Below are positions 380 through 37,367 of a DNA stretch of 64,000 nt, in pieces. Source of the stretch: Patescibacteria group bacterium. Lineage in GTDB: Bacteria; Patescibacteriota; Patescibacteriia; SG8-24; DYFX01. The translations under genes and the position numbers were made by a program. The first letter of the stretch is position 1, and each line of letters starts with the position of its first letter. Where the stretch lies: assembly GCA_030583805.1 (NCBI GenBank), contig CP129476.1, forward strand, positions 604,129-668,128, given 5' to 3'. A model generated the notes under the pieces. It was given only the letters and a program-made list of their open reading frames with translations. It ran no database searches and was not told the DNA's origin.

Positions 380-1786
380 TTAGCCCTTTTTCTCTTTCGG
401 GGCGAGGGCGAGAATATGCGCTTCCTGAAGCTGGACTTCCGGGAGCGGCGAGGGCGCGCCCATCATGGGATCGCGGGCGTCACCTGTCTTCGGGAACGTG
501 ATGACTTCACGAATATTCGGCTCGCCGGCAAGGATCATGGCGACGCGGTCGATGCCCGGAGCGATGCCGCCGTGCGGAGGCGCGCCGTATTCAAAGGCTT
601 CAAGCATGTGGCCGAAGCGCTCGACAATTTCATCGTCAGCCAAGCCGAGGATCTGGAAAATCTTGTTCTGCGTTTCCCGGTCGTGAATACGAATGGAGCC
701 GCCGCCGATTTCGTAACCGTTCAGGACGATGTCGTAAGCCTTGGCGATCACCTTCTCGGGCGCGGTCGCGAGCAGCTCCTTCTGATCGTCGCGCGGCGCG
801 GTGAACGGATGGTGCGCCGAAACCAGACGGCCTTCGGATTCCGACTTTTCGAACAGCGGGAAGTCCACGATCCAGCAGAATGCCAGCTCGTTCGGATCGT
901 CCTTGTTGACGCGCACGTCGGGCTTGTCGTTGCCGTACTTCTCCATCGCTTCGGCGTAGGACAGGCGCGGGAACGGCTTTTGCAGAATTTTCTTTTCGGG
1001 GGAAACCGTTTCGACGAGCTTGATCAGCATTTCTTCCACCAGCGAAATGACGTCCTCTTCGTCGACGAAGGACATCTCCATATCGAGCTGGGTGAATTCC
1101 GGCTGGCGGTCGCCGCGCTGGTCTTCGTCGCGGAAGCAGCGCGCCACCTGGAAGTAGCGCTCCATGCCGGCGACCATGAGAAGCTGCTTGAACTGCTGAG
1201 GCGATTGCGGCAGCACGTAGAACTTGCCGGCGTGCAAGCGCGAGGGCACAAGATACTCGCGCGAGCCTTCCGGCGTGCCCTTGGTGAGAATCGGCGTCTC
1301 GATTTCGAAGAAACCTTTCTGTTCCAGGAAGTCGCGGAAGAATTTCGTGACCTTGAAACGCAACTCCGTATTCTTGCGCATGCGCTCGGAGCGGAGGTCG
1401 AGGTAGCGGTATTTCAAACGAAGCTCTTCGTCGACCGCGCTGGTGTCGGCGTTGAGTTCAAACGGCGGCGTTTTGGCGGCGTTCAACACCGTAAGCTCGA
1501 GCGCTTCGAACTCGACCGTGCCGAGCGGCTGGTTGGCCTGCACTTGTTTCTCGGGACGCGCATTCACCTTGCCGCGAATGGCGACGACGTATTCTGAACG
1601 CAAGTCGGCCGCAGCCGCGAGCGCCTCGGGGTTGCCCGGGTGGAAAACGACTTGGATGATTCCGGTGCGGTCGCGCAATTCGATGAAAATCATCTTGCCC
1701 ATGTTGCGGCGCACGTGCACCCAGCCTTTCAGCAAGACTTCCTCTCCGATCCGGTTCAGGGTTTCTAAAACAAAAATGCGTTTCAT
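380..1786 (-). CDS. aspS: aspartyl-tRNA synthetase, short form lacking the GAD insertion
   Basis: 468 aa. N-terminal OB-fold anticodon-binding domain, class II core with FRDE and GGGSIRIHD-type motifs, no insertion domain. Confidence 0.9.
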
Positions 1787-28357: not shown

Positions 28358-29506
28358 TCAGCCGACGGTGAACTCGCGAATGAGCTCCGGGTCGCCGTAC
28401 CGGACGGGCTTGAAGATCGTGAGGGCGATGCGCGGACAATTGCGCCAAACCGCCTCATCCGCAGACGCGCTCCGAGCCGTAAGCCAGGCTTGCACCTGGT
28501 CGTGCAGATCGTGCGCGATCCGATGAAAATCGTTCACGTCTTCGCCGGTTGCCGACCAGCTCTTGCTCGCGCCGATCTTCAGATCGACGCGGGGCGGCTG
28601 CGACCAGTACGACGGTTCGAAGCTGTGGATTTGTCCGGCGGGAAGCTTCAGCGCGCTGCGCAGGTCGCACATCGCGTCGTGCAGACCACGATACGCTTTC
28701 GCGTCACGCGCCAGCGCTTGGATCAGCGGATCGGCGTCGAGGTCGCGCGAACTTGAAACCCCAAGATTGCTGAGCGGTACGTGTTGCATGATCGCGCCGA
28801 GCGCCTGGATCTCCCGGCGCTCGAATTGCCGCGCGAGCCCTTTCCACATCGTTGGAACGGCATCCACGCCTCCGAAGTATTGCATCGACGGCGTCTTTTC
28901 GATGAGGAGCAAGATGCCGCGCATGGTGCGATCGCGATGCGCATGGTGTTCCTTGGTCGCGCGAAAGGCCTTCTTCAGAAGATCGTTGCCGCCTTCGTCT
29001 TTCCGCACCGATGCGTCAACAATCGCCGTGAAAAGCGCTTCCGCCTCCTCTTCCGAATTCGTCTCCCGCCAGCGCTGCACGATGATCTCGAGCAATCGCT
29101 GCTTGTACACAAGGAGCGTCGGATCCTTGATTTTCCAACTTTCGTACGTGTCCCGGTCATGCGCCGTGCCGTCGCGGTACTCAGGCGACGCGCGCCAGAG
29201 CTCCATGGCCGCCTGCGCCTGAGCGGCTTTGACCGCCTCTTCATGACGGCGCTGGCGTGCACCCGCATTGGCTTCCGCAACCGACACGCTCTCCTTTCGG
29301 AACGCCTCCGCGTGAACGTCGTCGATCGCAAGCAACAGGAGCTCAAACAGCGCCAGCGCGCGCTCGTCATCATGCCGCTTCACGGCATGGTTGGTGAGTG
29401 GGGCCCTGAGGAGATCCGGGCGCTCCCCAACCGCATGACGCTTGAACAGATCGATCTCCATCCAACGCTTCTCGCCTTCCAGTTTCTTCAAGAGCTTCTC
29501 GTGCAT
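28358..29506 (-). CDS. hypothetical protein, 382 aa
   Basis: Long ORF with ordinary composition. No recognised domain. Confidence 0.55.
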   Translation of the reverse strand: MHEKLLKKLEGEKRWMEIDLFKRHAVGERPDLLRAPLTNHAVKRHDDERALALFELLLLAIDDVHAEAFRKESVSVAEANAGARQRRHEEAVKAAQAQAAMELWRASPEYRDGTAHDRDTYESWKIKDPTLLVYKQRLLEIIVQRWRETNSEEEAEALFTAIVDASVRKDEGGNDLLKKAFRATKEHHAHRDRTMRGILLLIEKTPSMQYFGGVDAVPTMWKGLARQFERREIQALGAIMQHVPLSNLGVSSSRDLDADPLIQALARDAKAYRGLHDAMCDLRSALKLPAGQIHSFEPSYWSQPPRVDLKIGASKSWSATGEDVNDFHRIAHDLHDQVQAWLTARSASADEAVWRNCPRIALTIFKPVRYGDPELIREFTVG

Positions 29507-30921: not shown

Positions 30922-31509
30922 CTAGGCGGCCGGGCGTTTTGCGACCAGGTGGATGCGGTGCTGGAAAATCTCCTCGCCGCTCACGAGCGGCCACGGGCCT
31001 TTGTATTCGTTCATCGCGAGCACCTCCCAGCCGGACCAGAGCAGCTTGAACTCTTCGAGCATCCAGAAGCTCATGTCCTTGCGGTTGGCCCAAGCGTGCT
31101 CGAGGCCGTAGACGGAAAGCACGACCGCGCCGCCGGGCTTGAGCGCAACCTTGATGCGTTCAAGCAACGATTGGCATTCCTCTTTTTTCAAAAATGGCAG
31201 CGAGTTGATGGCGACGGCGAGCGTGTAGTAGCCGGGGCGCAGTTCGAACTCGCGGAAGTCGCCCTGGATCGCGTCGACCGTCAGGCCTTGGCAGCGCTCG
31301 GTCGTATAGGCGATGGCGGCTTGGCTCTTGTCGATGGCGTCGACCATCATCCCGTTCTTGGCGAGGTATTCCGCTTCGGCGCCGGAACCGCACCCGAGGT
31401 CGAGGGCGATCCCGCCGTGAATATCGAGACGCGGAAACCAGTCCGTCAAAAGGCGGGCGGCGGGGCGCTGCAGGATGCGCTGCTTCAAATCGGCGATGGG
31501 GTCGCTCAT
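30922..31509 (-). CDS. class I SAM-dependent methyltransferase
   Basis: Start MSDPIADLKQR (ATG 31509). LDLGCGSGAEAEYLAKNG motif I. The upstream track ORF extension runs through the tRNA and is rejected. Confidence 0.7.
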   Translation of the reverse strand: MSDPIADLKQRILQRPAARLLTDWFPRLDIHGGIALDLGCGSGAEAEYLAKNGMMVDAIDKSQAAIAYTTERCQGLTVDAIQGDFREFELRPGYYTLAVAINSLPFLKKEECQSLLERIKVALKPGGAVVLSVYGLEHAWANRKDMSFWMLEEFKLLWSGWEVLAMNEYKGPWPLVSGEEIFQHRIHLVAKRPAA

Positions 31510-31538: not shown

Positions 31539-31567
31539 AAAGAAAAACGACCGTCTTGAACGGTCGT
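31539..31567 (-). terminator. hairpin AACGACCG-ttcaaga-CGGTCGTT with T-run on the minus strand, downstream of tRNA-Pro
   Basis: 8-bp stem read from the sequence. Confidence 0.45.
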
Positions 31568-31573
31568 TTTCCA

Positions 31574-31648
31574 TGGTCGGGCTGACAGGAATTGAACCTG
31601 CTGCCTTTCCCACCCCAAGGGAACGCGCTGCCGATGCGCCACAGCCCG
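31574..31648 (-). tRNA. tRNA-Pro, anticodon GGG, CCA encoded
   Basis: Reverse complement CGGGCUGUGGCGCAUCGGCAGCGCGUUCCCUUGGGGUGGGAAAGGCAGCAGGUUCAAUUCCUGUCAGCCCGACCA folds by hand as a cloverleaf. 7-bp acceptor stem, anticodon loop UUGGGGU, T-loop UUCAAUU. Confidence 0.85.
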
Positions 31649-31649
31649 G

Positions 31650-31990
31650 TCTTTGTCGGCACGGGGAACTCTAGATGTTTTTGAGTGATCCGGCAAGGGT
31701 CTTTGGAAACGCAAAGGCTCCGCGGCGGAAGGCATGATTTGGCGAGTGAAGTCATGTGGGCTCCCCGGCGGGTGCCGGGGCGGCATCGGAAGACGGGCTC
31801 TTGAGAATCCCTGACGGGCTGCCCAAGAGGCGTCTTCTTCCGCTCTTACCGCTGAAGCCGTCGGCCTAGTCGCCACAGCGACAGGTCTCTTCGGCCACTC
31901 TGCCAAATGATTGTCCCAAAACATGTTCTTCCGGGCACGGAGCCAACTCCAGTATACCGCCCGCCACATACCCTTTCAAGACAGAAAAGA
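31650..31990. ncRNA. about 340-nt noncoding, highly structured region between the ndk terminator and tRNA-Pro; candidate ncRNA with RNase P-like motif fragments, strand unresolved
   Basis: No ORF on either strand (frequent stops on plus; the minus track ORF is R-rich and crosses the tRNA). On the minus strand CUUC-AGCGGUAAGAGCG-GAAG, a 12-nt match to the conserved GGUAAGAGCG segment of bacterial RNase P RNA closed by a helix, sits mid-region. On the plus strand GAAGUC...GGGCUCC(n5)GGGUGCC resembles the P4/CR-I region. Many nested perfect GC stems. Confidence 0.3.
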
Positions 31991-32016
31991 ACCGGGAAAA
32001 ACCCGGCTCTTTTCGG
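31990..32016. terminator. bidirectional terminator CCGGG-aaaaa-CCCGG with flanking T-runs, downstream of ndk
   Basis: Read from the sequence. Confidence 0.5.
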
Positions 32017-32025
32017 AAATCGCGT

Positions 32026-32535
32026 CTACTTTTTGATCGTGAACTTGGTGTAGGACGGGTCGTGCGCGACGAGTTCTTCCGGTTTGAACCAGACGCCGAG
32101 CTCGACTTCCGCTTCTTCCGGCGAACCGGAAGCGTGGATGAGGTTGAAGACGCCGATCTGCTTGTCGTCGGCGTACTTGAACGAAACGTGCGCGTAGTCG
32201 CCGCGGATCGTGCCGGGTGCGGCGCTCTTCGGTTCGGTCGCGCCGATCATCTTGCGGACGACTTCGACCATCTCGATGCCTTCGAGCGCGATCGCGAGGA
32301 TCGGGCCGGAGGTGAGCATCTCGACCATCAGCTGGCGGACCTTTTCGCCGCGGCGCTGCGCGAGGTCGTCGGTGTAGTGCTTCATGGCCGTGTCCTTTTC
32401 GGAGACGAGCAGCTTCATGCCGACGAGCTTGGCGCCGACGCGCTCGAAGCGCGTGACGATTTCGCCGACGATGCCGCGGTCGAGCGCATCGGGCTTGAGG
32501 AGGACGAGGGAGCGTTGGATCATAATCGTATTCAA
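32026..32535 (-). CDS. ndk: nucleoside diphosphate kinase
   Basis: 169 aa, ...RSLVLLKPDALDRGIVGEI...NLIHASGSPEEAE. Confidence 0.9.
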   Translation of the reverse strand: MNTIMIQRSLVLLKPDALDRGIVGEIVTRFERVGAKLVGMKLLVSEKDTAMKHYTDDLAQRRGEKVRQLMVEMLTSGPILAIALEGIEMVEVVRKMIGATEPKSAAPGTIRGDYAHVSFKYADDKQIGVFNLIHASGSPEEAEVELGVWFKPEELVAHDPSYTKFTIKK

Positions 32536-32565: not shown

Positions 32566-33468
32566 TCACTTTGCAAGATGCAGGCGTCCGCCCGCGCAGG
32601 CGTAGCGGATCGTTCCTTCGCGATCGGTGCGATGGATGGAAATGCCGCGTTCAAGCAGCGCCGAGAGGACGCGCGGCGTGGGGTGGCCGTAGCGGTTGCC
32701 CGCGCCGGAAGAAATGACGGCCTCCTTGGGACGCACGGCATCGAGAAAGGCTTCCGACGTGGAGTAGGCTGAACCGTGATGCGCCACCTTGAGAAGTTCG
32801 GCACGCAGGGCGGACGCATCATCGAGCAGCGCGGCTTCGACGTGCGCGGAAATGTCGCCCGTGAAAAGCGCGCGCGACGCGCCGCACGAAAACGTCCCGA
32901 CGATTCCGAAATCGTTGGTACCGCCGCCTTTGGCGCTCGAAGTCGCCGGCGGCACGATCCTTCCCCGCATCTCTTCGCGCGGCCAGAGCACTTGGAACGA
33001 CGTTCCGTCGGCGAGGTCGGCGCGCTCCCCCGCCTGCACGAAACGCTGCGCGATTCCCTTCGCTTCGACCGCCGCGACGAACCGTCGCGCCGTATCGGTT
33101 GTTGGTGCCGCGCCGTTCCACCAAATTTCTCCTATCTTATATTTCTGCAGGACGCCGAAGAGTCCGACGTAATGATCGGCGTCGAGGTGCGTCACAAGCA
33201 CGACGTCGATCGTGCGGTCCCAAAAGGGCATGGCGTCGGACAAGCCTTCGAGCACGTCGGCGCCCGGCCCGCCGTCGATCAGAACATCTTTTCCTTCCCT
33301 GTCGCGAATGAGCACCGCGTCGCCTTGGCCGACATCGAAAAACCAGAGCTGCGCCGAAGCCGTCACGGCCAGGCGGCGCTGCTCGATGATGCCCGCGAGC
33401 GAGAAGGCTCCGGCGAGCGCCAGGACGATGAGAAGGATGTGGTGGCGTTTCAGAAACGTTTTATTCAT
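32566..33468 (-). CDS. comEC: ComEC/Rec2 C-terminal part: TM anchor plus metallo-beta-lactamase domain
   Basis: MNKTFLKRHHILLIVLAL TM, then VLVTHLDADHYVGL and ...VAHHGS MBL motifs. Its ATG overlaps the stop of the upstream ComEC membrane ORF (ATGAATAA, 8-nt overlap). Confidence 0.7.
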   Translation of the reverse strand: MNKTFLKRHHILLIVLALAGAFSLAGIIEQRRLAVTASAQLWFFDVGQGDAVLIRDREGKDVLIDGGPGADVLEGLSDAMPFWDRTIDVVLVTHLDADHYVGLFGVLQKYKIGEIWWNGAAPTTDTARRFVAAVEAKGIAQRFVQAGERADLADGTSFQVLWPREEMRGRIVPPATSSAKGGGTNDFGIVGTFSCGASRALFTGDISAHVEAALLDDASALRAELLKVAHHGSAYSTSEAFLDAVRPKEAVISSGAGNRYGHPTPRVLSALLERGISIHRTDREGTIRYACAGGRLHLAK

Positions 33469-34501
33469 AGACAGCATAGCGGAGCGAGGCGCGGCGGCGC
33501 CAACGCCATAAGAGAAATATCGAGGCGAACTCGACAAGCACCAAGAGCGCGAAGGCGGTCAGACCCGAAACCGAAGCGGCGCGCCACGTGGCCATCTCGC
33601 GAATCAGCGCGAGAGGCAGCATGAACAAACCGCGCGAGACGAGCGCGAGCGCGAAAGCGAACGGTATTGAAATGAAGCTGACGAATACAAGCAGCGCTCC
33701 GCCCGCCATGAGCGTCGGAATGAAGGCGGCGACGGCGACGTTGGCCGGAAGGCTGACGAGCGAGTACGCGCCCGACATCCAGGCGATGAGCGGCGCCGTG
33801 GCGATCGAGGCCGCGAGCGTTTGGCTGATCCACTCGACGGGCGCCCGCGGCCAAGCGCGTGGGAACGAAGCTTCAAATGCCGGCGCGATCGTCGCAAGGC
33901 CGAACGCCGCCATGAACGAGAGTTGGAATCCCCGATCGGCCACGAGACTCCTCGGCGAAAAAAGTCCGATCAGCGTCGCTGCGAGCAAAAGCGCGCGCAA
34001 CGGTTTCACCGGGCGTCCAAGGTAGCGTCCGGCCTCGACAGCACCGATCATGACAGCCGCGCGGACGACCGATCCTGGCGCCCCGGTCAGCAACACGAAA
34101 GCGACGATCGATCCGGCGGCCAGAAGCAATCGCGCGCCGCGTCGAAACGGCAGGCGCAGCAAAAATGTTTGCGTCGCCATGATCACGAGCCCGACGTTAT
34201 ATCCGGAAACCGCCGTGAGATGACTCGTCCCCGTGCGACGAAACGCGTCTTTCCATTTTTGAGAGAAGCCATCATCTGCGCCAAGCAGAAGCCCCGCCAC
34301 CCACGCCGACACGGGCGGATCGAACACGTCGTCGATTTGGCGGACGATCATACTGCGCCAACGATCAAAAATCCCGTTCGTCTTTTGCGGACGCGGAAGA
34401 AACGCGCCGTAGATACACAAGAGCGCGAGCAGCACGCCAACGCACGCCTCGAAGACGAGCGAACGCTTCGGAAGATCGTTCTTGAACCCTTGAAAACGCA
34501 T
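33461..34501 (-). CDS. comEC: ComEC/Rec2 N-terminal competence (membrane channel) domain
   Basis: 346 aa polytopic, ...FRRTGTSHLTAVSGYNVGLV... characteristic of the competence domain. Confidence 0.7.
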   Translation of the reverse strand: MRFQGFKNDLPKRSLVFEACVGVLLALLCIYGAFLPRPQKTNGIFDRWRSMIVRQIDDVFDPPVSAWVAGLLLGADDGFSQKWKDAFRRTGTSHLTAVSGYNVGLVIMATQTFLLRLPFRRGARLLLAAGSIVAFVLLTGAPGSVVRAAVMIGAVEAGRYLGRPVKPLRALLLAATLIGLFSPRSLVADRGFQLSFMAAFGLATIAPAFEASFPRAWPRAPVEWISQTLAASIATAPLIAWMSGAYSLVSLPANVAVAAFIPTLMAGGALLVFVSFISIPFAFALALVSRGLFMLPLALIREMATWRAASVSGLTAFALLVLVEFASIFLLWRWRRRASLRYAVYE

Positions 34502-34544: not shown

Positions 34545-37367
34545 TTAAACGGCAACGATGTTGACGAGGCGTTTCTTCACCACAATCACCTGCTTCACCG
34601 TCTTCCCTTCAAGCGCGGCTTTCACTTTTTCATTCTCCATCGCGAGGCGCTCGAGCTCTTTGTCGTCGGCGTCGACCGGGACGGTAATGCGATCTTTCAC
34701 TTTACCGGTGACCTGGAGCGCGATTTCGACTTCGCTGTCGACGGTGAGCGCGGCGTCGTAGGCCGGCCACGGGGCGAGGGCGATGAGCTCTTTCTGGCCG
34801 GACGCTTCCCAGAGCTCCTCGGTGATGTGCGGCGCGAAGGGCGAGAGGATTTTCAGGAAGGCTTCGTAGTCCGCGTTCGAAAGCTGGGCGCCTTCGTTTT
34901 CGTTCACGAAAATCATCATCGTGCTGATGGCGGTGTTGAACTTGAAGGCTTCAATGTCTTCCGTGACTTTCTTGATCGTCTTGTGGAGCAGCGAGCGGAG
35001 CTTGGCCGGAGTTTCGGCGGCGCCGGACTGCATCTTCCAAACGCGCTCGAGGAAACGGCGCTGGCCGATGATGCCGGAGGTGCTCCACGGTTTCACCTGC
35101 TCGAAGTCGCCCATGAACATTTCATAGAGACGGAAAGCGTCGGCGCCGTGCTCGGCGATGACGTCGTCGGGGTTCACCACGTTGCCGCGCGACTTGGACA
35201 TTTTTTCGCCGTCCTCACCGAGGATAAGGCCCTGGTTCTTGAGACGCGTGAAGGGTTCTTTGAATTTCACGAAACCGGCGTCGAAGAGCACCTTCGTGAA
35301 GAAGCGCGCGTAGAGAAGGTGCAGCACGGCGTGCTCGGCGCCGCCGACGTAGGTGTCGACGGGGCACCAGTAATCGACTTTGGCTTTGTCGGCGAAAGCG
35401 CTTTCGTTCTTCGGATCGCAGTAGCGCAGGAAGTACCACGAAGAATCCACGAACGTATCCATCGTGTCGGATTCGCGCTTCGCGGGCTTGCCGCATTTCG
35501 GGCACGCCACGTCGTGGAATTTTTTCGAGCGGGCGAGCGGCGACTCCCCCGTCGGGCGGAAGTCGACGTCGTCGGGCAGCGTGACGGGGAGCTGTTCCTC
35601 GGGCACCGGCTGTTCGCCGTGCTCGTCGCAATAGACGATCGGAATCGGCGCGCCCCAATAGCGCTGGCGGGAAACGAGCCAGTCGCGAAGATGATAATTC
35701 ACCTGCTTGCGGCCTTTCTTTTCGGCTTCGAGCGCAGCGGTGATTTTTTTCCTGGCGTCCGCCGAAGCGAGACCGTCGAAGGCGCCGGAACCCGTCAGGA
35801 TGCCGTCGTCGGTGTAGGGACGGTCGAACGCGAACTTCTGGAGCACGTAGGCGTGCAGCGGGTCGGACACTTTCGTGGCGGCGTCTTCGAACGACAGCCA
35901 CTCGACCGTGAACTTTCCTTCTTCGTTCGCTTCAAGCGCCGTCGATGCACGGCGATCGCTCTTCAAGCGGAAGTGGAGGCCGATCGCGTCGATGGCGCGG
36001 GCGACGTTTTTGGAGTGCGCGAAATAGTTGTGGTGGATCGTTTCGGACATGCCGACGAGTTCGAGATCGGCATACCCCGTCTCTTCGAGAATCTCGCGGC
36101 GCGCGCAGGCTTCCGGATCTTCGTTTTCGTCGCGTCCGCCGCCCACGAGCAAATGTCCGCCCATCGAAGAGCCCCAGTTGATGGAGAGCACTTTTTTGCT
36201 CGAAGGATCTTCAACAAGCGCCACGATGCTGCGGCGGTATTCCGGATTTTCCTGCGGCGTGCCGGTGACCGGCTCGACGACCGTCGTGATGCGAAGGCCG
36301 TACGTTTTCGCAAAGGCGTGATCGCGCTCGTCGTGCGCGGGGACGACCATGACGGCGCCTGTGCCGTATTGCGGCAGGACGTAGTCGGCGACATAGACGG
36401 GAACGTCTTCGCCCGTGAACGGATGCTTTGCGTAGGCGCCGGTGAAGACGCCCGTCTTGGCTTGGTCGGTGCCGGTGCGCTCGATTTCCGATTTGCGCTT
36501 GGTCGCTTCGATGTAGGCCGCGACCGCGCCGCGTTCCGCTTCCGCGGTCAGACGCTCGACGATCGGGTGTTCCGGAGCGACGACGACGGCTGAAACGCCG
36601 AAGAGCGTGTCGGGGCGCGTCGTGAAAACGGTCAGGTCGAATTCTCCCCCGTCCGGCGTGTGGCCGCGGAAGTCGATCTCGGCGCCTTCGCTGCGCCCGA
36701 TCCAGTTGCGCTGCATCGCCTTGATCTTCTCCGGCCATTCGAGGCTGTCGAGATCTTCAAGCAAGCGGTCGGCGAAGTCGGTGATCTTGAAGAACCACTG
36801 CGAAAGATTTTTCTGGACGACCGGGTTCTTGCAGCGTTCGCACTTTCCGTCGACAACCTGCTCGTTGGCCAGCACGGTGTGATCGAATTCGCACCAATTG
36901 ACCGGCGCCTGTTTCTTGTAGGCCAAACCGTTCTTATAGAGGAGCAGGAACATCCACTGCGTCCACTTGTAATAGGAAGGCAGGCTCGTGTTGATTTCGC
37001 GTTCCCAGTCGTACGAAAAACCGATCAGCTTGAGCTGGCGGATGTAATTGGCGACGCTTTGCTGCGTGATGTCGTGCGGATGGCCGCCGATCTTGATGGC
37101 GTAGTTTTCGGCGGGCAGGCCGAAGGCGTCCCAGCCCATCGGATGCAGCACGCACTTGCCGTCCATGCGGCGCTTGCGCGAAAGGATGTCGGTCGCGATG
37201 TAGCCGATCGGGTGCCCCACATGGAGACCGTTCGAGGACGGATACGGGAACATGTCGAGGATGTAGCACTTCTCTTTGGAAGCGTCCTCCTTTGCCGCAA
37301 ACACGCGCTCAGCATCCCAGCGCGCTTGCCACTTCTTTTCGAGTTCCCGGGGTTCGTATTTCGGCAT
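34545..37367 (-). CDS. leuS: leucyl-tRNA synthetase carrying an inserted Nudix-box domain (about residues 368-519)
   Basis: 940 aa. HVGH and KMSKS (GEKMSKSRGN), CP1 editing domain (TRPDT...AVMVVPAHDERDHAFAKTYGL). Between editing-domain end and VNYHLRDWLVSRQRYWGAPIP lies about 150 aa containing GGGRDENEDPEACARREILEETGY, a match to the Nudix box G-x5-E-x7-REUxEExGU. Confidence 0.9.
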   Translation of the reverse strand: MPKYEPRELEKKWQARWDAERVFAAKEDASKEKCYILDMFPYPSSNGLHVGHPIGYIATDILSRKRRMDGKCVLHPMGWDAFGLPAENYAIKIGGHPHDITQQSVANYIRQLKLIGFSYDWEREINTSLPSYYKWTQWMFLLLYKNGLAYKKQAPVNWCEFDHTVLANEQVVDGKCERCKNPVVQKNLSQWFFKITDFADRLLEDLDSLEWPEKIKAMQRNWIGRSEGAEIDFRGHTPDGGEFDLTVFTTRPDTLFGVSAVVVAPEHPIVERLTAEAERGAVAAYIEATKRKSEIERTGTDQAKTGVFTGAYAKHPFTGEDVPVYVADYVLPQYGTGAVMVVPAHDERDHAFAKTYGLRITTVVEPVTGTPQENPEYRRSIVALVEDPSSKKVLSINWGSSMGGHLLVGGGRDENEDPEACARREILEETGYADLELVGMSETIHHNYFAHSKNVARAIDAIGLHFRLKSDRRASTALEANEEGKFTVEWLSFEDAATKVSDPLHAYVLQKFAFDRPYTDDGILTGSGAFDGLASADARKKITAALEAEKKGRKQVNYHLRDWLVSRQRYWGAPIPIVYCDEHGEQPVPEEQLPVTLPDDVDFRPTGESPLARSKKFHDVACPKCGKPAKRESDTMDTFVDSSWYFLRYCDPKNESAFADKAKVDYWCPVDTYVGGAEHAVLHLLYARFFTKVLFDAGFVKFKEPFTRLKNQGLILGEDGEKMSKSRGNVVNPDDVIAEHGADAFRLYEMFMGDFEQVKPWSTSGIIGQRRFLERVWKMQSGAAETPAKLRSLLHKTIKKVTEDIEAFKFNTAISTMMIFVNENEGAQLSNADYEAFLKILSPFAPHITEELWEASGQKELIALAPWPAYDAALTVDSEVEIALQVTGKVKDRITVPVDADDKELERLAMENEKVKAALEGKTVKQVIVVKKRLVNIVAV
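35811..36266 (-). other. Nudix-hydrolase-like domain embedded in leuS (box at 36072-36143)
   Basis: Segment RRSIVALVEDPSSKKVLSINWGSSMGGHLLVGGGRDENEDPEACARREILEETGYADLELVGM... replaces the about 55-aa linker found at this position in E. coli LeuRS. Confidence 0.6.

Follow-up and report, generated by a model that had tools for sequence, protein, structure and literature searches.

We report a gene that likely encodes a stand-alone, folded non-coding RNA of a previously undescribed Parcubacteria family, and we infer that this RNA acts in trans, probably as the core of an RNA–protein complex. The gene lies on a 64-kb stretch of DNA (64,000 nucleotides, hereafter the window) whose host genome belongs to the Parcubacteria (Minisyncoccota, candidate phyla radiation or CPR); the best matches to its ndk bear the names Candidatus Parcubacteria or Patescibacteria. 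It was delimited with R1, a covariance model built from 19 sequences, which finds a single copy in the window (Table 1). An earlier note on this DNA had described a structured, RNase P RNA-like unit of about 350 nt. The conserved unit is shorter, and the 58 nt that lead from it to tRNA-Pro (31706..31649) are not conserved among relatives. The view that no plausible ORF exists here holds, as the long ORFs across the region pass through the tRNA gene and are spurious, mechanical artefacts. Likewise supported is the view that a functional structured RNA, and neither junk nor coding DNA, lies here: base pairs covary, the promoter is conserved, and the RNA is kept across deep Parcubacteria lineages.

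The RNA gene and its neighbourhood

The RNA is part of a conserved housekeeping neighbourhood, leuS-comEC-ndk-RNA-tRNA-Pro. Our promoter scan shows that it has its own predicted sigma-70-type promoter, in which TTGAAA and TATACT are separated by a 17-nt spacer. Across the 28 homologues, a TAnnnT −10 box ends 4–8 nt before the start of the model in 27, whereas by our own estimate about one sequence in 10 would carry a −10 box at such a position by chance; TTGnnn stands at a spacing of 16–18 nt in 20 of them, and the spacer sequences diverge. A U-rich 3′ flank is found in almost all homologues, several of which add a separate terminator hairpin. The −10 and −35 boxes and the U-rich tract directly after helix P1 point to a primary transcript whose first nucleotides form P1; it is predicted to start at about 31944, the first P1 nucleotide, and to end in the U-rich tract at about 31706.

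Table 1. Features of the RNA gene and of its surroundings in the window.
Feature	Position	Strand	Remarks
ndk	32535..32026	minus	Pfam NDK; upstream of the RNA gene
ndk terminator hairpin	31983..32012	minus	between ndk and the RNA promoter
−35-like hexamer TTGAAA	31974..31979	minus	promoter scan of the window
−10 hexamer TATACT	31951..31956	minus	promoter scan; 6–7 nt upstream of the first P1 nucleotide
RNA gene	31715..31945	minus	about 231 nt; covariance model R1, 248.8 bits
P1, 5′ strand GGCUCCGUG	31936..31944	minus	pairs with 31724..31716
P1b, 5′ strand CGGAAG	31928..31933	minus	pairs with 31731..31726 (CUUCCG)
Ha, 5′ strand CAUGUUUUGG	31916..31925	minus	pairs with 31742..31733 (CCAAAUCAUG)
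Junction strand J1 GACAAUCAUUUGGCAGAGU	31897..31915	minus	near-invariant GACAA and UUUGGC in the columns of alignments A2 and A3
H3	31856..31896	minus	outer helix GGCCG/CGGCU and inner hairpin with C-YKUG-G loop
Junction strand after H3	31838..31855	minus	conserved C(A/C)GCG(G/A), then RNase P-like UAAGAGCG
H4	31789..31837	minus	long hairpin with internal loops
H5	31760..31784	minus	variable hairpin; absent from minimal forms
Junction strand GCCCACAUGA and spacer	31743..31761	minus	before the Ha 3′ strand; family motif (G/A)YCCRNNUGR
U-rich tail UUUGCGUUUCC	31705..31715	minus	directly after P1
tRNA-Pro(GGG)	31574..31648	minus	Rfam and ARAGORN; downstream neighbour, outside the RNA
Second terminator	31572..31542	minus-strand order	after tRNA-Pro
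TehB-like methyltransferase	31509..30922	minus	Pfam

In the window the RNA sits between ndk and tRNA-Pro, all on the same strand, and no hairpin terminator precedes the tRNA, so that read-through of the RNA into tRNA-Pro would be plausible here. Such an arrangement is compatible with a cis-acting element, be it a tRNA-Pro leader, a riboswitch controlling a gene downstream or the 3′ UTR of ndk. Against this stand the RNA's own promoter and the arrangement of the locus in relatives. The tRNA gene shares the strand of the RNA in part of the relatives and points the other way in L001, L014, L017 and L166; other relatives have acquired genes between ndk and the RNA, such as the 535-aa ORF of L004 and L172; the RNA of L027 has its own terminator on its 3′ side; and in L043 the RNA converges on ndk, ends at its own terminator and has no downstream gene. 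Such variable context excludes leader, 3′ UTR and riboswitch roles to the point that we regard a cis-acting element as highly improbable. Co-transcription with tRNA-Pro was rejected as a defining feature because the orientation of the tRNA flips between relatives. The RNA gene thus has its own promoter and terminator signals and does not depend on its neighbours, an independence which suggests that its product acts in trans.

Other observations were made on the surrounding genes. ORFs of about 520–535 aa separate ndk from the RNA in L004 (3582-5189), L172 (4640-6244) and L168 (4490-6046); two of the three are without a Pfam match, and the third weakly matches ATP-grasp. In the LeuRS of the window (34545-37367, minus strand, 940 aa), a NUDIX hydrolase domain is inserted at residues 377-510 (E = 1e-12), immediately behind the editing domain. 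In relatives, L001 for example, LeuRS is 800 aa long and the NUDIX protein (172 aa) is encoded by a gene of its own that comes next. ComEC (32566-34501, minus strand) is encoded by two overlapping ORFs, one with the Competence domain (34501..33461) and one with the metallo-beta-lactamase domain (33537..32566), and the same split occurs in relatives. A 382-aa ORF between rpsL and an M50 peptidase gene (28358-29506, minus strand) has no Pfam match.

Homologues and common fold

In all, 28 distinct homologues were recovered from Parcubacteria/Minisyncoccota genomes and metagenomes. With ndk as the anchor, the element was located immediately downstream of ndk in related contigs at about 77% DNA identity, and the RNA is found beside ndk in 19 of 38 species-level related genome loci as well as in further metagenome and assembly contigs. 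At every locus found, it forms a discrete unit of 135–275 nt. R1 recovers distant members (L029, L015, L167, L165, L174 and L031) together with short forms of 135 nt in L043 (Sungbacteria) and 158 nt in L041, and one more short form, of 146 nt in L027, came from a motif search. As far as sampled, the family is restricted to Parcubacteria; the viral contigs searched contain no true homologue of the RNA. A pattern scan of metagenomes with TTTTGGGWCANNCNTTTGGC yielded the true RNA at 5 of 120 loci, the fifth of which, L061, is identical to L029. Most of the 120 matches are false because TTTTGGGWCANNCNTTTGGC also encodes the peptide GHQILGQAFGG of carA (glutamine amidotransferase), with which it coincides in L078, L096, L141 and others.

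All homologues can be described by a common fold, in which a terminal rod (P1-P1b-Ha) closes a junction with hairpins H3, H4 and H5. The rod consists of the paired 5′ and 3′ ends and measures about 25 bp (P1, 9 bp; P1b, about 6 bp; Ha, about 10 bp). We tested this structure on alignment A3 (19 sequences, 1260 cells), where 90.8% of the cells are paired, compared with 33–53% when the 3′ partners are slid by 1–3 columns. Compensatory changes back the fold: both partners have changed in 26 pairs (109 cells; the sampled sequences represent about a dozen lineages, and cell counts overstate the number of independent events), and none of 500 column shuffles reached the observed paired fraction, number of doubly changed pairs or covariation score. 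Independently, RNAalifold reported 21 compensatory pairs. The comparative alignment proposed in the earlier note thus came out in favour of a conserved structure.

Within the rod, the nine pairs of P1 are formed in 96.4% of cells, with UA/CG and GC/AU swaps and many G-U pairs. P1b, which formed part of helix 2 in the structure test, continues the rod in all single-sequence folds. Pairing in Ha is kept in at least seven sequence versions (CAUG/CAUG, AAA/UUU, AAG/CUU, UUUCGG/CCGAAA, UUUUAG/CUAAAA, CUUAAG/CUUAAUG and GAUUCC/GGAAUC). The two helices of H3 (helices 4 and 5) are 96–97% paired with 5 doubly changed pairs, and the hairpin carries a UGUG loop in the window and UUUG, CUUG or CGUG elsewhere in the family. 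The helices of H4 (6 and 7) contribute 11 doubly changed pairs, and in many relatives H5 is capped by a GNRA tetraloop (GCAA, GGAA or GUAA).

The most conserved nucleotides are those of the unpaired junction strands, namely G(A/U)CAA, UUUGGC, C(A/C)GCGG and (G/A)YCCRNNUGR. G(A/U)CAA directly follows Ha and is kept in the minimal forms, while (G/A)YCCRNNUGR is present in all 28 homologues. Peripheral hairpins are gained and lost between lineages: the homologues of 135–158 nt (L043, L041 and L027) have neither H4 nor H5 but retain the rod and the invariant motifs of the junction, the motif after H3 then reading UUGCGG and being joined directly to ACCCAC. Since the short forms retain only the rod and the junction, we consider these two elements to be the core of the RNA.

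In the window and L010 subgroups, a downstream UUUGGCAGAG repeat offers the 3′ strand of Ha an alternative pairing partner, so that the fold of the junction is not fully settled. In this area (window 31897-31925 / 31733-31746, minus strand), the 3′ strand CUCGCCAAAUCAUG has two similar upstream partners: CAUGUUUUGG, which gives the universal helix Ha, and AUUUGGCAGAG, which is found only in some subgroups and whose pairing may represent an alternative conformer. A helix AUUUGGC/GCCAAAU predicted by RNAalifold was rejected as a family-wide element, as in L167 and L165 the change from UUUUGG/CCAAAA to UUUCGG/CCGAAA affects the upstream copy alone; in some subgroups this helix may still be an alternative conformer. 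A pseudoknot between loop and junction (UGUGG with CCACA) was discarded as inconsistent across groups.

These data also bear on the strand, which the earlier note had left undecided. As the CR-I/P4-like strings that it pointed out on the plus strand implied, the functional RNA could be transcribed in the opposite direction. The plus strand alone folds slightly better against shuffled sequences (z = −2.96, compared with −2.7 for the minus strand), and the ndk terminator is bidirectional; both z-scores are modest, and by itself the structured appearance of the region is therefore suggestive rather than decisive. In the alignment, G-U cells outnumber A-C cells by 107 to 40 on the minus strand; reading the plus strand turns these G-U pairs into A-C mismatches and lowers the paired cells from 90.8% to 85.5%. 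In addition, the conserved −35 and −10 boxes and the U-rich tails occur on the minus strand only, where alone the GNRA and CUUG-type loops read correctly. Judging from pair counts and promoter signals, the minus strand is the transcribed one, and a plus-strand RNA appears extremely unlikely.

Comparison with RNase P, 6S and other RNAs

At gathering thresholds, Rfam 15 matched only tRNAs, as did a search of the whole 64-kb window at E ≤ 1, and ARAGORN found tRNAs and no tmRNA. At E ≤ 10, a segment of 801 nt and the isolated 251-nt RNA gave no match to RNase P, 6S, SRP, tmRNA or 5S models, and three divergent homologues (L029 and L167 among them) no relevant one. The covariance-model search suggested earlier for RNase P, tmRNA, 6S and SRP RNAs was therefore negative. 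In our literature searches, no RNA of this kind turned up for Parcubacteria or Patescibacteria. The RNA is not RNase P RNA, 6S RNA, SRP RNA, tmRNA or 5S rRNA under the current definitions of these families. A likeness of GGUCCGACUGG..CAUGCCGAAAC to loops B and C of 5S rRNA was dismissed, the strings being here in a paired context (Ha) and without model support; resemblances to SRP domain IV, the TPP riboswitch and Y RNA equally lack model support, stand in the wrong structural context and were, like that to 5S rRNA, attributed to chance. The raiA, OLE and ROOL/GOLLD RNAs are comparable in that they were likewise defined by covariation, have conserved junctions, are restricted to certain lineages and have no established biochemical function. 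The Parcubacteria RNA has no sequence or structure similarity to them, as all are in Rfam and none matched.

The RNase P possibility was examined specifically since, according to Lui et al. 2021 (PMC8172020), RNase P RNAs of the CPR can diverge strongly; in that study, 10 of the 35 complete CPR genomes lacked one at Rfam thresholds. According to this explanation, the Parcubacteria RNA would be an RNase P RNA that has been drastically reduced or has diverged, or a paralogue derived from one, in which P1 is stacked on a P4-like Ha, P2/P3 and the specificity domain are absent, and H3, H4 and H5 correspond to P5, P15 and P18. All the strings quoted in the earlier note are present in the sequence: on the minus strand GCGGTAAGAGCG (31852..31841), flanked by CTTC (31857..31854) and GAAG (31840..31837), and on the plus strand GAAGTC..GGGCTCC..GGGTGCC (about 31749-31776) and ACATGTTCTT (31921-31930). 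The window RNA has an exact 12-mer which we take to be shared with E. coli M1 RNA, and we roughly estimate the chance of any shared 12-mer at about 0.01. The likeness extends to architecture. As in the catalytic domain of type A RNase P RNA (RF00010), a terminal helix of the 5′ and 3′ ends is stacked on a second long-range helix, whose 5′ strand lies between a purine-rich run and a GGGAC on its 3′ side, a GNRA-capped hairpin lies near the 3′ side (H5 being often GNRA-capped, as P18 is), and peripheral helices are variable; the order of elements is that of the catalytic domain without P2/P3. In L022 and L035, the canonical RNase P RNAs have GGAAAGUCGGGACAC and ACAGAAUCCCGCUUA, to be compared with GGAAAAGUUUCGGGACAA and ACAUGCCGAAACUUGA in L167 for the family described here.

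This resemblance does not extend to what defines RNase P RNA. No RNase P model (RF00010, RF00011 and the other members of the clade) matches the isolated RNA or the three divergent homologues at E ≤ 10, and R1, run without filters, assigns no score to the genuine RNase P RNAs of L022 and L035. The Parcubacteria RNA has only two to four internal hairpins and neither P2/P3 nor a specificity domain (P7-P12, CR-II/CR-III). The lack of P2/P3 means that there is no P4 pseudoknot of CR-I and CR-V with its invariant AAG-U(bulge)/CUU; Ha is nested inside P1/P1b instead, and the positions that match the universal AAG/CUU and bulged U of P4 covary freely (AUG/CAU, AAA/UUU, UUUUAG/CUAAAA). Nor is the 12-mer segment GCGGUAAGAGCG conserved. 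Within the window clade alone it is common to this RNA and type A RNase P RNA; homologues have GCGGCACUAUGC, GCGACAGAAGCU or GCGACCUGUUGC instead, and unrelated sequence takes its place in the L010, L168, L015 and L029 groups; the CR-III-like 12-mer is thus not kept in the L010, L168 and L015 groups, and the corresponding UAAGAGCG of the window varies in relatives. The CUUC/GAAG closure, which the earlier note had read together with the 12-mer as a conserved segment, is not kept beyond the closest relatives and is lost in L001 and L004. Also proposed was a pairing of GAAGAACAUGU with ACAUGACUUC (ACAUGU/ACAUGA), which fails in the L010 group, where 5–6 of 9 positions pair (hand count on alignment A2).

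Related lineages, moreover, have a normal RNase P RNA. Canonical type A genes lie next to aspS-ndk in L022 (1581-1952, plus strand) and L035 (1147-1471, minus strand); beside aspS in the window (380-1786, minus strand) there is no RNase P RNA, and the region is gene-dense. The RNAs of L022 and L035 are 325–372 nt long, as opposed to 135–275 nt for the Parcubacteria RNA family, and score 108 bits, just over the Rfam threshold of 100, in the same search that was run on the window RNA. Both lineages fall between RNA-bearing ones in an ndk neighbour-joining tree (a single gene, with no support values), which makes co-existence of the two RNAs the more parsimonious reading. In yeast mitochondria, reduced RNase P RNAs reportedly consist of P1, P4 and P18 only and have a similar topology, with P1 nested around a P4-type helix and few internal hairpins. 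These RNAs are as short as about 140 nt and keep the consensus nucleotides of CR-I and CR-V, which the Parcubacteria RNA does not. Based on the relatives and on motif conservation, an RNase P role appears excluded, and we consider a reduced or paralogous RNase P RNA to be unlikely.

Shape and setting also recall 6S RNA, a promoter mimic that sequesters the RNA polymerase holoenzyme. To our knowledge, 6S is the only near-universal housekeeping RNA not reported for Parcubacteria, and our literature search for a Parcubacteria 6S RNA found nothing. The Parcubacteria RNA is encoded, like 6S RNA (RF00013), by a stand-alone gene of the abundant type, has a strong promoter and a length of 135–275 nt, and its ends pair in a long closing stem, next to which lies a large internal region containing two facing conserved single strands of about 18 nt. 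The closing rod and the two unpaired strands are indeed present; on the other hand, the distal part is branched (H3/H4/H5, or two short hairpins in L043), so that two to four separate hairpins replace the single terminal stem of 6S RNA. RF00013 and related models have no match, no feature can be pointed to as the template of a pRNA, and a link to RNA polymerase is only conjectural. A 6S-type function consequently strikes us as a doubtful prospect, with the odds clearly against it.

Possible role in Parcubacteria

The argument from architecture suggests that the Parcubacteria RNA is most likely the RNA core of a housekeeping RNA–protein complex. Its locked ends, invariant multi-helix junction, tetraloops typical of tertiary packing and dispensable peripheral helices would fit a compact RNA with either a specific binding partner or a catalytic activity, rather than a base-pairing sRNA or a cis-regulatory leader. 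Retention of the gene in genomes smaller than 1 Mb suggests a housekeeping role. Two more specific readings may be entertained together, both unlikely in our view: a minimal relative of RNase P, built on a P1-P4 stack and as short as 135 nt, which would be either the actual RNase P of some Parcubacteria, as a ribozyme or an RNA–protein complex, or an RNase P-derived paralogue with a new substrate; or the RNA core of a CPR-specific housekeeping complex without counterpart elsewhere. Unless whole-genome scans show that these organisms have no other RNase P, the RNase P label should be dropped.

An RNA most likely at the core of a housekeeping complex would be of interest in organisms whose genomes are tiny and leave little room for dispensable genes, and apart from rRNA, tRNA, RNase P, SRP and tmRNA, few non-coding RNAs are known in CPR bacteria. 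The Parcubacteria RNA escapes all current annotation models; the definition of the family gives annotators a model and removes a false RNase P lead. It also provides a concrete target for metatranscriptomics, pull-downs and structural work, the host organisms being essentially uncultured. An RNA that is driven by its own promoter, strongly structured and kept across several Parcubacteria lineages of tiny genomes likely has a basic role in these bacteria.
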